Assembly (NCBI GenBank): GCA_041662445.1
Contig: JBAZSL010000006.1
Coordinates: forward strand, 3,801 to 67,800
Direction: 5' to 3'
From: Candidatus Babeliales bacterium
GTDB lineage: Bacteria > Babelota > Babeliae > Babelales > RVW-14
DNA length: 64,000 nt
The notes under the pieces are model-generated. The model saw nothing but the letters and a program-made list of their open reading frames with translations. It ran no database searches and had not been told where the DNA came from. Made by a program: the position numbers and the translations under genes. How positions within the stretch are numbered: position 1 is the first letter of the stretch; every line of letters starts with the position of its first letter. Shown here in pieces: positions 17,948 through 63,404 of this stretch.

Positions 17948-18877
17948 TTACTCAATACCTGCAAGCTTTCTTTCAAGCAGGCTAATGATTTTAGCATTCT
18001 GTGCTTTGGCACTGGCCTTTATGGGATCTGTTTCTTTTTTCCCTGGTTGACTGATATCGCGTAAGCGAATTTCTTTAGTTCGTGCTATATCAAGCGCGGT
18101 GCTTTTACTCTTGTTGGGTAGTGAAAGATCGATTTTTTCGACTTCTAGAAGCGTGGTTACCGTTTCCAAACAATTACTATTAACGGCATACATAAGAGCA
18201 GTCCATCCTTTATTATCCTGCTTATTCACATCGGCAGCTGCGTTCAGTAGTTTTGATACTGTGCTATTCATGGTGATTGGATCTGGGTTTTGATATGCAC
18301 CTTTGCAGGCCAACATGAGTGCTGTTAGGCCTGAGCTCTCCTGATTGTTAATGGTTACATCTTCAGTGCTTGCCAGGAGAACTTGAACGATATCAGGATG
18401 TCCATACTCGCAGGCGAGCATTAGAGGGGTTGTTGCATCCTCGGCTCCTGCAAAGTAGGCTCCGATTTTACGTTTTGCCCCTCTGAAAAATTTACCAATG
18501 GTGCTTTTTTCAGCTCTTAATACTTTGGGGAGGAGTTGTTTGACTACATTGGTATAGCCAAATTGAGCAGCAGCGCATAGGGCTGCCATACGTTGCTCGG
18601 GCGAGGCATTGTCCAGGAGCACGTCAATAACATCGGTGTGACCGCGTGACGCTGCTGTTATAAAAGGGGTGTTGCCATCGTCGTCATTGGCGTTTGCGTT
18701 AGCTCCTAGAGATAAACACCATCTTACTTGTCCAGCATTACCGTAGGCGGCTGCTTGTAAAAGATCTTTATCGACATTAGTAAGGTTTTGTGGTGGAAAA
18801 AGTTTACGCATTGCGGAGACATTTTTATTGCAAAAAAATGCAAAACTAATCATGAATAGCATCTGTAGCGCGTTCAT
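17948..18877 (-). CDS. ankyrin-repeat protein with N-terminal leader
   Basis: Leader MNALQMLFMISFAFFCNKNVSA|M; repeats such as DDGNTPFITAASRGHTDVIDVLL and GLTALMLACKG. Confidence 0.85.
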   Translation of the reverse strand: MNALQMLFMISFAFFCNKNVSAMRKLFPPQNLTNVDKDLLQAAAYGNAGQVRWCLSLGANANANDDDGNTPFITAASRGHTDVIDVLLDNASPEQRMAALCAAAQFGYTNVVKQLLPKVLRAEKSTIGKFFRGAKRKIGAYFAGAEDATTPLMLACEYGHPDIVQVLLASTEDVTINNQESSGLTALMLACKGAYQNPDPITMNSTVSKLLNAAADVNKQDNKGWTALMYAVNSNCLETVTTLLEVEKIDLSLPNKSKSTALDIARTKEIRLRDISQPGKKETDPIKASAKAQNAKIISLLERKLAGIE

Positions 18878-19083
18878 ACATACTCCTTTAAAAAAACTGC
18901 CACCTTATTTAACACATGCAGCAAGCATACGTCCAGCACGCTGGCCCAAGTCAAGTATTGTCTTAAGCAAGTGCGTTGGCGCGGCGTACAGGCGCCCATC
19001 TGGCGCTGATTATTGACCTTTGCGGTGCGAGTGTGCGACATTAAAACCTGTGTATGGTTTTATACCTTTGGGGAGAGGGGTCC

Positions 19084-19566
19084 ATGAAAAAATACGGGTT
19101 CACGCTTATCGAGCTCATGATTGTTGTCGCCATCATTGTGTTTCTTGCAGTTCTTGCAGTACCTCAATTGTTTCACTACAAAGCCAAAGCATATCAGGCT
19201 GAAGTTGCTATGAATTTGGCATCATTACATACCGCTCAACAGATTTATTTTGCGCAACATGGTAAATATGCAACAGCACTTTCTGGTGAAGGAGGACTTG
19301 GTTGGAAGCCTGCAGGGTATCGTGGCAATGGTAAAGAGGAAGGCTTTTTTTATACCTACGGATTTAATGTTGATGGTGCCCAGGAGGGCGTGCATTATTT
19401 TACGGGCAAACTTAAAACGCCGAAAGAAGAGTTAGGAACAACGCCGGTAACTAATGAGGGTTTTGTTGCAGGTGCTGCCGGTGTTGCCATTGCTAGCAAG
19501 GGTGCCGATGTATGGCATATCGATGAAAATCGGCAGATGGAGCATATTAAAAACGGAGTTGACTAG
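19084..19566 (+). CDS. pilA: type IV pilin / pseudopilin
   Basis: Prepilin leader MKKYG|FTLIELMIVVAIIVFLAVLAVPQ (G-1, F+1, E+5); GGAGAGGGG RBS. The ORF track start at 19054 is probably too early. Confidence 0.85.
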   Translation: MKKYGFTLIELMIVVAIIVFLAVLAVPQLFHYKAKAYQAEVAMNLASLHTAQQIYFAQHGKYATALSGEGGLGWKPAGYRGNGKEEGFFYTYGFNVDGAQEGVHYFTGKLKTPKEELGTTPVTNEGFVAGAAGVAIASKGADVWHIDENRQMEHIKNGVD

Positions 19567-19578
19567 GGAGGGGAATAA

Positions 19579-20292
19579 ATGATCTCTCAAAATTCTGTTC
19601 TTACGTGGTGCGGTGCGTGTGTATGTGTATGGTTTTGTCCTCTTTCTGCTATGACGACACCGCTTCATGCTGCGGTATCTCAACGTGACTTTAAGGAGGT
19701 TATAAATCTAGTTAATCATGAAGCTGATGTTAATGCGTGTGATGCGGTGGGTAATACGCCTCTTCATACTGCCGCATGTTATGGGTGCGATGTTATTGCG
19801 CACGTGTTACTTGACGCCGGTGCCAATGTGAATGCACTTAATAATGATGGTGAACAACCATTGCACATAGCGGCATACTGGGGGCACCCAAAAGTCCTAG
19901 ATGTTTTGCTTGAAGAAGGAGCTTTTGTCGATGCATGCAGTGATAGCGGAAGCACTCCTTTGCATTATGCGGCGCTGCATGGTTGGGTCGATGTGGTAGG
20001 CAAGCTTCTTGATGCCGGCGCTAATTGTACCCTGCGCAATGGTGGTGGAAATACTCCTTTGCATTATGCGGTAATAAATGGAACCGTTAGTGTTGTGAGA
20101 TTATTTATCAATTTTTCTGGTGAGAAAAAATTGCTTGAACTTAGAAATAAATGCGGACAAACCGTCCTTGGGCTCGCATGTGAAGAGTTATTACGTCTTG
20201 AAAATGCTGGTGATGAACGGCGCTATCAGATTGTTGATTTACTTGAGAAGCATAGTAGAACATGGATTGTACAACAAAAGTCTGTGTTCTAG
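19579..20292 (+). CDS. ankyrin-repeat protein with N-terminal leader
   Basis: At least five canonical repeats (GNTPLHTAACYGCDVIAHVLLDAGANVNA etc.); GGGAGGGG RBS; 12-nt gap after the pilin gene. Confidence 0.9.
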   Translation: MISQNSVLTWCGACVCVWFCPLSAMTTPLHAAVSQRDFKEVINLVNHEADVNACDAVGNTPLHTAACYGCDVIAHVLLDAGANVNALNNDGEQPLHIAAYWGHPKVLDVLLEEGAFVDACSDSGSTPLHYAALHGWVDVVGKLLDAGANCTLRNGGGNTPLHYAVINGTVSVVRLFINFSGEKKLLELRNKCGQTVLGLACEELLRLENAGDERRYQIVDLLEKHSRTWIVQQKSVF

Positions 20293-62101: not shown

Positions 62102-62254
62102 CATGTTTTGTGACCGCCGTGTAAAGGGCTCCAAGTACTATTGCGATTTGAAGCTGGCCAGCAGTTGGATTATGTAAAGATCTATTGCGGGACGTTTCTT
62201 GACCGTGATCATCTCCAAGAGCGACGGACTGAGTTGCTCTTAGCGGGGAAGTAA
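62102..62254 (+). pseudogene. orphan duplicate of the P60 gene 3' end
   Basis: A 50-codon frame ends ...VKIYCGTFLDRDHLQERRTELLLAGK*, versus the P60 C-terminus ...AKIYCGTFLDREHLQERRTELLVTDHIS*. Confidence 0.5.
62176..62235 (+). repeat. 60-bp direct repeat, copy 2
   Basis: 57/60 identical to 61399-61458; located 777 bp downstream of copy 1. Confidence 0.85.
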
Positions 62255-62270
62255 GACTAATCTGGGCTTT

Positions 62271-62618
62271 GTGGGGCATTTTGATCCGCAAAACGTTATT
62301 TTTGTGAGATTTATTTACTCATATTGCTTTAACATGATAAAAGGATTTTGTGCCGCCTTGCACATGATGCCTAACTTTTATCACTGGCGTGCACATGCAG
62401 GCGCAGAAGTGGATATTATTGTTGAACTTGATGGGATTTTTTATCCTATCGAAGTGAAGGCTGCAACGACGGTAAACAAAAATGATATTCGCGGTATTGC
62501 CGCTTTCAAAGAAACATATCCGCAATTGCGCATTGCACATGGTATTGTTATTTATGCAGGTGATGAATGTTTCCGCATAACAAAAGACATCATTGCAGTT
62601 CCGTGGAACTTACAGTAG
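62271..62618 (+). pseudogene. C-terminal remnant of an AAA_14/DUF4143-family ATPase gene
   Basis: FYHWRAHAGAEVDIIVELDGIFYPIEVKAATTV resembles the C-terminal restriction-endonuclease-like end of DUF4143 proteins. The roughly 300 N-terminal residues, including the ATPase domain, are absent. Confidence 0.55.
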
Positions 62619-62663
62619 AGCGGTACGTGTGCCTTAAAAATGTCGAACGAAGGAGCGCTTTGT

Positions 62664-63404
62664 ATGAAGTCTATGAAATCACTGTTGTTGTTATGTGTTA
62701 TGTCCACTGCGCTGATTAATCATCATATGCTTTGGGGCATGGAACTGCATAAAAAACCATCACCCTCTGATGAATTTTGGAACGCCTTGAAAGCTGATAA
62801 TACAGCGACAGTTAAGCGTTTATATCAAAAGTTTAACCTCAATGTTGATCAAGATGGTTATACCCCACTAATGTGGGCTACATATAATGGTAATGTTGAG
62901 CTTGTAAAACTATTTCTTAAGGGTGGTGCTTATGTTAATACCCGAAATAGGAATAATGGATTTACTGTATTGATGTATGTTACCGGTCCAGGGGGGATTC
63001 GGGATTGTAATCCGCAAATAGCAGAGATACTTCTTGAGGCAGGAGCTGATCCAAATGTTCATGCCGCTAATAGTCTTACAGCAATGGAAGTTGTTGTTGG
63101 TGATAAGCGTTTAGTTCTTTTGCTTATTAAATATGGCGCAAATTCATTTTATAAAGATGACGCAATACATCGTGCTCTTGGCGGAAGCCGCCTTGAGACG
63201 CTTGCTCTTCTTGCAGATAACACCGACTATAGCATTCGAACGCTATCTTTTGTTCGACAGAGTGGAAAACAAGCCGATAAAAAGGTTCTTGCTCTTGCTG
63301 CACAAAAGAATGTTGCGCGCAAAGTGTTGCAGGAAGCACAACGTCAGGGTATCGGTGCGGTTGATGTGACGGGCATTATTAAAAAGCAGTTTGGTCAAAA
63401 ATAA
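62664..63404 (+). CDS. ankyrin-repeat protein with leader
   Basis: AGGAG RBS 8 nt before the ATG at 62664; leader MKSMKSLLLLCVMSTALINHHMLWG|M; repeat DGYTPLMWATYNGNVELVKLFLKGGAYVNT. Confidence 0.85.
   Translation: MKSMKSLLLLCVMSTALINHHMLWGMELHKKPSPSDEFWNALKADNTATVKRLYQKFNLNVDQDGYTPLMWATYNGNVELVKLFLKGGAYVNTRNRNNGFTVLMYVTGPGGIRDCNPQIAEILLEAGADPNVHAANSLTAMEVVVGDKRLVLLLIKYGANSFYKDDAIHRALGGSRLETLALLADNTDYSIRTLSFVRQSGKQADKKVLALAAQKNVARKVLQEAQRQGIGAVDVTGIIKKQFGQK

Follow-up and report, generated by a model that had tools for sequence, protein, structure and literature searches.

Methionine at the leader junction of a fast-turnover secretome in a Babeliales genome, tentatively read as a Met-first signal peptidase site

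A 64,000-nucleotide stretch from the genome of a Candidatus Babeliales bacterium, an uncultured member of the phylum Dependentiae of protist-parasite type (GCA_041662445.1, contig JBAZSL010000006.1), hereafter the window, spans positions 3801-67800 of contig C6 in a 1.43-Mb, 32-contig assembly (G000) and encodes a set of ankyrin and RING-type proteins whose N-termini raise the question of why a methionine (Met) should so regularly stand directly behind the leader. In the translated N-termini, Met immediately follows a leader with n-, h- and c-regions in 13 of the 15 leader-bearing ankyrin/RING proteins of the window, and all 15 leaders are canonical: the n-region is positively charged, the core hydrophobic and the c-region short and polar. 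The residue before Met (position -1, Met being +1) is Ala in seven cases, Gly in three, Pro in two and, in one further case, Ala after a leader that starts with GTG. This junction Met had been reported in an earlier sequence-only reading of the window, and all 15 N-termini read as written there, including the two exceptions, Leu in 33703-34611 and Ile in 47162-47866. The answer that we favour, tentatively and with rather less than even confidence, is that signal peptidase I would cut before this Met and that the resulting Met-first, eukaryote-like N-terminus has been selected.

The pattern extends across the genome. A simple codon-usage caller gave 1,291 open reading frames (ORFs), and leaders were recognised by a hydrophobic-segment heuristic in which Met was treated as neutral; both the gene caller and the heuristics for leaders and cleavage are home-made and crude. 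By this heuristic 542 of the 1,291 ORFs (42%) are leader-bearing, close to the 44% of proteins reported for Chromulinavorax (PMC6561590). An [AG]-Met pair lies in the junction interval, from 3 residues before to 12 residues after the end of the h-region, in 102 of the 542 leader-bearing ORFs, compared with 17-26 in controls in which the same interval was moved by 40-120 residues; about 20 of the 102 counts are chance matches, and ~80 proteins, or ~6% of all genes, lie above chance. Met makes up 2.4% of residues across the genome and is enriched 7.2-fold at the junction, with the other 19 residues ranging from 0.44- to 2.06-fold. When sites were predicted by a -3/-1 cleavage rule that ignores +1, Met was the commonest +1 residue (50/396) and occurred only 6-15 times at positions +2 to +11, so that it lies exactly at the predicted cut. 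The earlier suggestion that the Met is non-random is therefore borne out by its excess over the controls, by its enrichment and by the +1 peak of the blind rule.

The junction logo reads [S/T]-[S/T/P]-L(42%)-x-[A/G]-M-[Q/K/E]-x-[D/E/P]. With an [AG]M anchor, position -3 is Leu in 42%, Ser in 13%, Val in 12%, Thr in 8% and Ala in 7%; Leu at this position is allowed by signal peptidase I but atypical for it. In the set without a restriction at -1, this residue is Ala in 48% and Gly in 22%, the rest being Ser, Thr or Cys and rarely Pro. Asp, Glu, Asn or Gln follows the junction Met in 38% of cases in G000, where the set is diluted by chance hits, and in 61% and 43% in two relatives (G028 and G011); the same four residues make up 19-22% at the second position of leaderless proteins and 17-19% behind an internal Met. 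Three trivial sources of the pattern were ruled out. Paralogy is not the cause, as the first Met set, of 87 proteins, divides into 60 BLAST families, 41 of them singletons. Nor is pipeline bias, as four Babeliales samples and two outgroup samples put through identical scripts show no +1 Met peak. A DNA-level or Kozak-like motif was likewise dismissed, as Ala/Gly codon use at -1 equals that of the genome (p = 0.23) and the +4 position is not rich in G.

Which proteins carry the mark was assessed by flagging 71 ankyrin proteins (phmmer) and 21 RING proteins (regular expression). The junction is present in 59% of ankyrin/RING leaders (67% when Ser, Thr or Cys is allowed at -1) and in 13% of other leaders (Fisher p = 3e-16). 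The class bias noted earlier thus holds, but the wording 'nearly all ankyrin and RING' proteins was too strong, given 59-67% genome-wide, and too narrow, as ~60 other proteins across the genome, mostly without a Pfam match, also have a Met junction. Ten of these non-ankyrin/RING members were compared with Pfam: seven had no hit, and the others gave a pentapeptide-repeat match, a DUF2608 match and a weak BPL_N match. Met-junction genes cluster, with 28 adjacent pairs compared with 7.9 expected.

The carriers also turn over quickly. In 392 kb of a same-genus genome (G001), reciprocal best hits were found for 3 of the 102 Met-junction proteins (2.9%), for 18% of other leader-bearing proteins and for 21% of leaderless proteins (p = 2.5e-5); three hits are too few to serve as a conservation test but are informative on turnover. 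Among the 82 leader-bearing proteins with a same-genus ortholog, that is, the conserved exported proteins, [AG]M occurs in three, which is the chance level, in line with the earlier statement that housekeeping exported proteins do not show the Met. In the window itself, Met is absent from the junction of the other exported proteins examined, namely the secretin, lipoproteins, the products of 7442-9244 and 9254-10030, and several envelope proteins. A genome-wide tabulation by class, of the kind proposed as a check, shows that Met is not equally common in all exported proteins, and the mark belongs to the whole fast-turnover secretome rather than to ankyrin and RING proteins only.

Within the window, the Met-junction set comprises five ankyrin genes and eight members of a RING-type family, the latter in an array at 46327-52864 and in a separate gene at 56903-57787 on the reverse strand. 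As nine RING genes and three ankyrin genes are paralogs, these represent about five independent lineages rather than 13. Ankyrin repeats were confirmed by Pfam in the ankyrin proteins of the window. The first of these (309 aa; 17948-18877, reverse strand) has the leader MNALQMLFMISFAFFCNKNVSA followed by Met (ATG at 18811-18809). In the second (237 aa; 19579-20292, forward, as are the other ankyrin genes), the junction is ...CPLSA|MTTPLHAA (ATG 19651-19653); its first ankyrin repeat begins immediately after the junction Met, and the +1-blind cleavage rule chooses the same site. The others are 32678-33550 (290 aa; ...NYVFG|MHAC; ATG 32759-32761), 34973-35866 (297 aa; ...NTLFG|MKRK; ATG 35051-35053) and 62664-63404 (246 aa counted from ATG 62664; ...HMLWG|MELH; ATG 62739-62741). 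The ankyrin paralog 33703-34611 is the exception, with ...NSLFA|LFPD and a Leu codon (CTT, 33781-33783) where Met is expected; we do not claim a recent loss of Met here, as CTT is two steps from ATG.

RING-finger Pfam matches in the RING-type family (Vps8-/Vps41-type) are sub-threshold, under the curated cut-offs, in three of the five members scanned. The eight tandem members lie on the forward strand. Member 1 (46327-47049) reads ...SKLSA|MQEP (ATG 46396-46398), and member 2 (47162-47866), the exception, reads ...SLTA|IQQP, with an Ile codon (ATA, 47231-47233) one transition from ATG. Members 3 and 4 are 47949-48746 (...TQVVA|MGVD; ATG 48018-48020) and 48734-49483 (...STIQP|MGKP; ATG 48797-48799). 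Member 5 (49608-50198; ...ANLRA|MDPE; ATG 49668-49670) belongs to the family without having the C-terminal RING, and is followed by member 6 (50260-51111; ...TDGIA|MGQD; ATG 50323-50325). In member 7 (51156-51932; ...SSIHA|MPHE; ATG 51228-51230), called as an ORF from 51114, the true start is GTG 51156, with the Shine-Dalgarno-like (SD-like) sequence AAGGGGGA in front. The array ends with member 8 (52016-52864; ...APLYA|MQDG; ATG 52085-52087), and member 9 (56903-57787, reverse; 294 aa) has ...PRIFP|MSVD (ATG 57718-57716). Beside the array, DUF2608 paralogs were observed with two different export signals: the copy in the window (52912-53820, reverse) has a lipoprotein-type junction (...LFASC|S), and a copy elsewhere in the genome (C5_70926-71870, reverse) has a Met junction (...YVSS|MEQK).

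Conservation of the Met was examined in orthologs, homologs and paralogs. A metagenomic contig of a related species (L102; JGI 3300063125, Ga0598259_0000051) carries a RING array syntenic with window positions 42697-57800. The junction Met is kept in all six alignable orthologs of the array, at 48-69% identity, and flanking positions match in one to five of the six; for example, the ortholog of member 1 has ...KLLA|MQES and that of member 4 retains IQP|M. The ortholog of the Ile exception has Met (...HLAA|MQDP), so the Met of 47162-47866 probably became Ile recently. Neighbours of the array on this contig (lipoprotein and DUF2608-like genes) are 87-88% identical to those of the window, indicating that the RING array evolves much faster than its surroundings. 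Three more Met-junction genes were seen on the same contig, at 13534, 14436 and 15545.

More distant homologs agree. A 55% homolog of 56903-57787 keeps Met within ...DIFS|MQID, homologs of 52016-52864 at 84% and 58% identity retain MYA|MQ, and G|MKRK of 34973-35866 is retained in homologs at 63% and 38% identity. These series are short: searches with two RING members gave one and two homologs only, and the phmmer search with 34973-35866 was dominated by generic ankyrin repeats, leaving three usable full-length family members. In 34973-35866 and its homologs P0006 and P0045, the mature N-terminus MKRK(F/A)xxP as a whole is kept down to 38% identity; this basic stretch might act as a nuclear-localisation-like or other targeting patch, most Met-junction N-termini being acidic instead. 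In alignments of 729 paralog pairs from within the genome, conservation around the junction is highest in columns -1 and +1 (0.37-0.47); the nearest flanks (-8 to +10) give 0.15-0.28, and h-region columns -10/-9 reach 0.27-0.36. An alignment bias toward Met-Met pairs may inflate these figures.

In their n- and h-regions the leaders have the anatomy of Sec signal peptides cleaved by signal peptidase I. Leaders of the 102 Met-junction proteins have a median length of 23 residues, with an n-region of 5, an h-region of 14, inside the range of about 8-20 expected for such leaders, and a c-region of about 5 residues, and the net charge of the n-region is at least +1 in 93 of the 102. A twin-arginine motif (RR.[FGAVMLI][LITMVF]) was found in one of the 102 leaders, which sets the class apart from twin-arginine signals. 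The leaders do not have a lipobox, their +1 residue being Met, and proteins with a lipobox (13 with Cys at +1) make up a set of their own. They also differ from type IV prepilin leaders in that the hydrophobic stretch precedes the Met and does not follow it. A single S26/LepB gene was found in the genome, outside the window (C13:6841-7656, 407 aa; PF10502, E = 1e-40), and no second signal peptidase was found in G000, where it is the only S26 gene. This LepB is long, and its TIGR02227 match is split between 1-104 and 116-162, suggesting a large insertion. Same-family relatives G005, G009, G010, G011 and G014 have two LepB copies on one contig, with about 1-4 kb between them; LepB copy number among the relatives does not track the Met rule.

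A mobile leader cassette was considered as a source of these leaders and rejected, as DNA matches in the leader region between unrelated proteins were almost all shared divergent promoters, with three or four exceptions. Three Met-junction genes on the reverse strand (C13_43209-45335, C13_46824-47804 and C4_4513-4893) have leader DNA in common, 72% over 85 nt, encoding LLALVACGC...SLWG/A|M, and C4_4513 has no BLASTP relation to either C13 protein; leader modules may thus be reused occasionally.

Relatives were run through the same pipeline on samples of 200-400 kb; as these are small samples from related genomes, the counts are descriptive and are not tests. A +1 Met peak is present in five of nine Babeliales genomes: this genome (50/396), the same-genus G001 (10/80), the same-family G007 (7/46) and G011 (12/129), and G028 from another family (16/122, mostly x[AST]|M[E/D]). 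It is weak or absent in the same-family G009 (3/106) and G013 (3/57) and in two small genomes of other families, G023 (1/41) and G029 (0/43), and it is absent from both outgroups, a proteobacterial metagenome-assembled genome (G031, 0/40) and a Pyrinomonadaceae genome (G032, 0/21). The rule is therefore patchy, even within one Babeliales family. Contig C1 of G001 (CAYUQI010000001.1) is publicly labelled 'uncultured Pseudomonadota bacterium', yet it belongs to Babeliales by MnmG identity (73%) and a kinship call. Ankyrin export and the mark can be separated: G009 exports 15 ankyrin proteins via classical AxA|N/D/H/S leaders, with Met in only two, and G001 also exports ankyrin proteins without Met, for which reason a tie to the ankyrin domain as such was rejected. 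Asp, Glu, Asn or Gln stands directly at +1 in 26-32% of cases in genomes without the rule, compared with 12-23% in genomes with it, so that Met-[DENQ] in the one group complements bare [DENQ] at +1 in the other.

Of the three explanations offered by the sequence-only reading (a dedicated cleavage or sorting motif, an internal alternative start, and a retained initiator), a dedicated motif fits best: the Met stands at the predicted +1, is class-specific and conserved in orthologs, and is followed by Asp, Glu, Asn or Gln far more often than a native start is. The sequences themselves show the pattern, its class bias, its conservation and its restricted spread among relatives; a cut exactly ahead of the Met, transfer into the host and the purpose are inferences. 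In the form that we favour, the leaders would be ordinary Sec signal peptides, and the single LepB would cut between a small residue (Ala or Gly, less often Ser, Thr, Cys or Pro) and Met, in a context of roughly [S/T]-[S/T/P]-L-x-[A/G]|M-[Q/E/K]-x-[D/E]. Mature proteins would then begin with Met, mostly as Met-Gln, Met-Glu or Met-Asp, and this Met-first N-terminus would be a selected mark of a fast-evolving, host-directed secretome of ankyrin, RING and no-Pfam proteins, not of conserved envelope proteins. Its purpose may be to cap an acidic or amide second residue, so that the released protein would present a eukaryote-like N-terminus to the host cytosol. In the eukaryotic cytosol, a first residue of Asp, Glu, Asn or Gln destabilises a protein through the Arg/N-degron pathway, and Met-Asp/Glu/Asn/Gln is the NatB substrate class of native eukaryotic proteins. 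Effectors beginning with Met-Glu, -Asp, -Gln or -Asn might on these grounds be indistinguishable from newly made eukaryotic proteins, escape the host Arg/N-degron pathway and perhaps be acetylated by NatB, and such mimicry would have been gained and lost repeatedly in Babeliales. We offer this host-side extension as a speculation, possible rather than probable.

Several points weigh against the favoured explanation. The mark is not required for the ankyrin class, as G009 and G001 show. Two window members (48734-49483 and 56903-57787) have Pro at -1, which is normally disfavoured by signal peptidase I, and the crude blind rule favours an earlier small-residue site in 10 of the 13 window proteins, namely those with long polar c-regions. 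The difference between genomes in 'destabilising' +1 residues is weak once Met itself is removed. NatB acts mainly co-translationally, on nascent chains, and Ala, Ser, Thr or Gly at +1 would be equally safe from N-degrons, leaving Met specifically unexplained. Delivery into the host cytosol is assumed here from the Babela and Chromulinavorax genome papers, which concern other organisms (PMC4378268, PMC6561590).

The main rival shares the cleavage step and places the reader of the N-terminus elsewhere: a Met-(acidic) start would be recognised in the periplasm as a sorting tag that routes the class over the outer membrane, through secretin/type II-like machinery or vesicles, leaving conserved envelope proteins behind. 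Several observations make this attractive, although we think it a possibility that is more likely wrong than right. The mark is class-specific and does not extend to conserved exported proteins, Met-junction genes cluster, and with ~42% of ORFs leader-bearing the cell needs some means to tell residents from secreted proteins. Precedents in which residues beside a cleavage site act as sorting signals are the +2 rule for lipoproteins, the lipoprotein export signal of Bacteroidetes and the xE/Q/D N-terminus left by processing at the Plasmodium export element (PEXEL). Genes for a possible second secretion step stand among the ankyrin genes. A type IV pilin-like gene with an N_methyl motif (19084-19566, forward) and a family A24 prepilin peptidase gene (20289-21125, reverse) lie among the ankyrin genes 17948-18877 and 19579-20292, and a secretin gene (PF00263; 35913-37607, reverse), whose own leader is of the classical type (...YVYA|DSAL) and not followed by Met, adjoins the three ankyrin paralogs. 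The secretin is a candidate outer-membrane channel for such a step, and the three together could provide it. Against a sorting tag, the mature motif is low in information (Met plus a Q/E/D bias), and type II secretion substrates are not known to bear linear signals. The rule is moreover missing in close relatives that still export ankyrin proteins, so that the reader would have to come and go as well, and no gene for such a reader was identified. The analogous Q-rule of Bacteroidetes, discussed below, was shown not to be a sorting signal, according to the abstract of its description (PMC5837995).

A relic of gene birth is improbable, if less easily set aside than the remaining alternatives. 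Here the Met would be the old start codon of formerly leaderless genes, acquired or newly born, to which a leader was added upstream, and it would persist while the genes are young. The mark does sit on the youngest, fastest-turnover genes; leaders are unusually common in the lineage (~42% of ORFs here, 44% in Chromulinavorax; PMC6561590); a folded domain can begin right after the Met, as in A|MTTPLHAA; and a few unrelated proteins have common leader DNA, such as C13_43209 and C4_4513. However, a relic does not account for a predicted cut directly before the Met, for Asp, Glu, Asn and Gln behind it at two to three times their frequency at native starts, or for its retention between diverging flanks in orthologs of as little as 38% identity. 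Leaderless paralogs that start at a junction Met were not found: only 2 of 150 projections fell within three residues, both onto leader-bearing subjects. There is also no general leader cassette. The retained initiator of the earlier reading is accordingly unsupported on all three counts of paralogs, cassette and post-Met residue; the idea is weakened but still alive, since the genes with the mark are the youngest ones and leaders are added to many proteins in this lineage.

It is less probable again that processing takes a different course, with a cut upstream at an earlier small-x-small site, a cut after the Met, or another protease recognising L-x-[A/G]-M. The preference of the blind rule for earlier sites in 10 of 13 window proteins, the Pro at -1 in two members and the unusually sharp Leu at -3 (42%) would all suit such processing, and the Asp, Glu, Asn and Gln after the Met resemble the +1 residues of genomes without the rule. 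Genome-wide, however, the blind rule peaks with Met at +1, not at +2 or later, Ala or Gly at -1 in ~70% together with an aliphatic or small -3 residue fits signal peptidase I, and with only one S26 peptidase found there is no candidate second enzyme.

An internal start, in which the junction ATG also initiates translation and one gene yields an exported and a leaderless cytoplasmic isoform, is very improbable. The junction codon is always ATG, and public gene calls for such genes sometimes begin within or behind the leader: P0020, the public call for the product of window 33634-34611, begins inside the leader of that gene. Yet an SD-like motif (at least four bases, 4-18 nt upstream) precedes 0 of 87 junction ATGs, as the sequence-only reading had noted by eye, compared with 63% of leader starts, which show a G-rich peak at -12 to -6, and 5% of random internal ATGs; SD-driven internal initiation is therefore unlikely. 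Codon use at -1 matches that of the genome, which argues against any DNA-level motif, no -10-like box was visible in the DNA upstream of the junction ATGs inspected, and a cytoplasmic pool of host-directed ankyrin/RING proteins would have no evident use. Leaderless-mRNA initiation at the junction ATG is formally possible.

Several known systems invite comparison. The junction shares with classical Sec/signal peptidase I substrates the division into n-, h- and c-regions, the median length of 23, a mostly small -1 residue and the single LepB; it differs from them in Met at +1 (0/21 and 0/40 in the outgroups), a Leu-dominated -3 position and Pro at -1 in two window members. Met at +1 is rare in classical signal-peptide sets. 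In the Plasmodium PEXEL system, RxLxE/Q/D is cleaved after Leu by plasmepsin V and the new N-terminus xE/Q/D is acetylated. As there, the processing site considered here is near the signal, would leave a short, defined N-terminus with E/Q/D in second place and would mark host-bound proteins; unlike it, PEXEL is eukaryotic, lies 15-30 residues past the signal peptide and requires Arg and Leu but no Met. With Leu at -3 and Q/E at +2 of the junction itself and no conserved Arg, the resemblance is an analogy only. Listeriolysin O is reported to be degraded by the host N-end rule pathway, depending on the residue that opens the mature protein, and by analogy the residue exposed by signal peptidase would here set a protein's fate in the host cytosol; that case concerns one protein and a destabilising residue, whereas a genome-wide, stabilising and eukaryote-like cap is proposed here.

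The closest parallel is the Q-rule of Bacteroidetes, under which signal peptidase I substrates have Gln at +1 that is converted to pyroglutamate (PMC5837995; PMC10653852). Both are lineage-restricted, strong preferences for a single +1 residue on ordinary Sec/signal peptidase I leaders, both were found by sequence statistics and both presumably act through the new N-terminus. They differ in that the residue is Met rather than Gln and that conserved exported proteins are at chance level here (3/82). Under the Q-rule a glutaminyl cyclase modifies the new N-terminus; Met cannot cyclise, and no modifying enzyme is known, no search aimed at one having been made. The Met rule further marks an accessory, host-directed class only (~15-20% of leaders), where the Q-rule covers most signal peptidase I substrates, housekeeping ones included, and it is patchy within one Babeliales family. 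Full-text literature searches found no published description of a Met-first rule. The Babela and Chromulinavorax genome papers (PMC4378268, PMC6561590) report many leader-bearing ankyrin and ORFan proteins and nothing on the +1 residue, and Met and Dependentiae are not mentioned in the Q-rule paper (PMC5837995).

For Dependentiae, which secrete an unusually large part of their proteome, no effector signal is known so far. A leader followed by Met, often with an acidic residue next, appears to separate fast-evolving host-directed proteins from envelope housekeeping and is a possible effector predictor for the whole group; the rule would also correct gene starts misplaced by gene callers. It raises the question of what role the first residue of a secreted protein plays in the periplasm or in the host. 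If N-degron shielding or NatB mimicry proved true, this would be a second clade-specific +1 rule after the Q-rule, with a host-side rationale, and would point to a general means by which Sec-secreted effectors set their own half-life or interactions inside the host.

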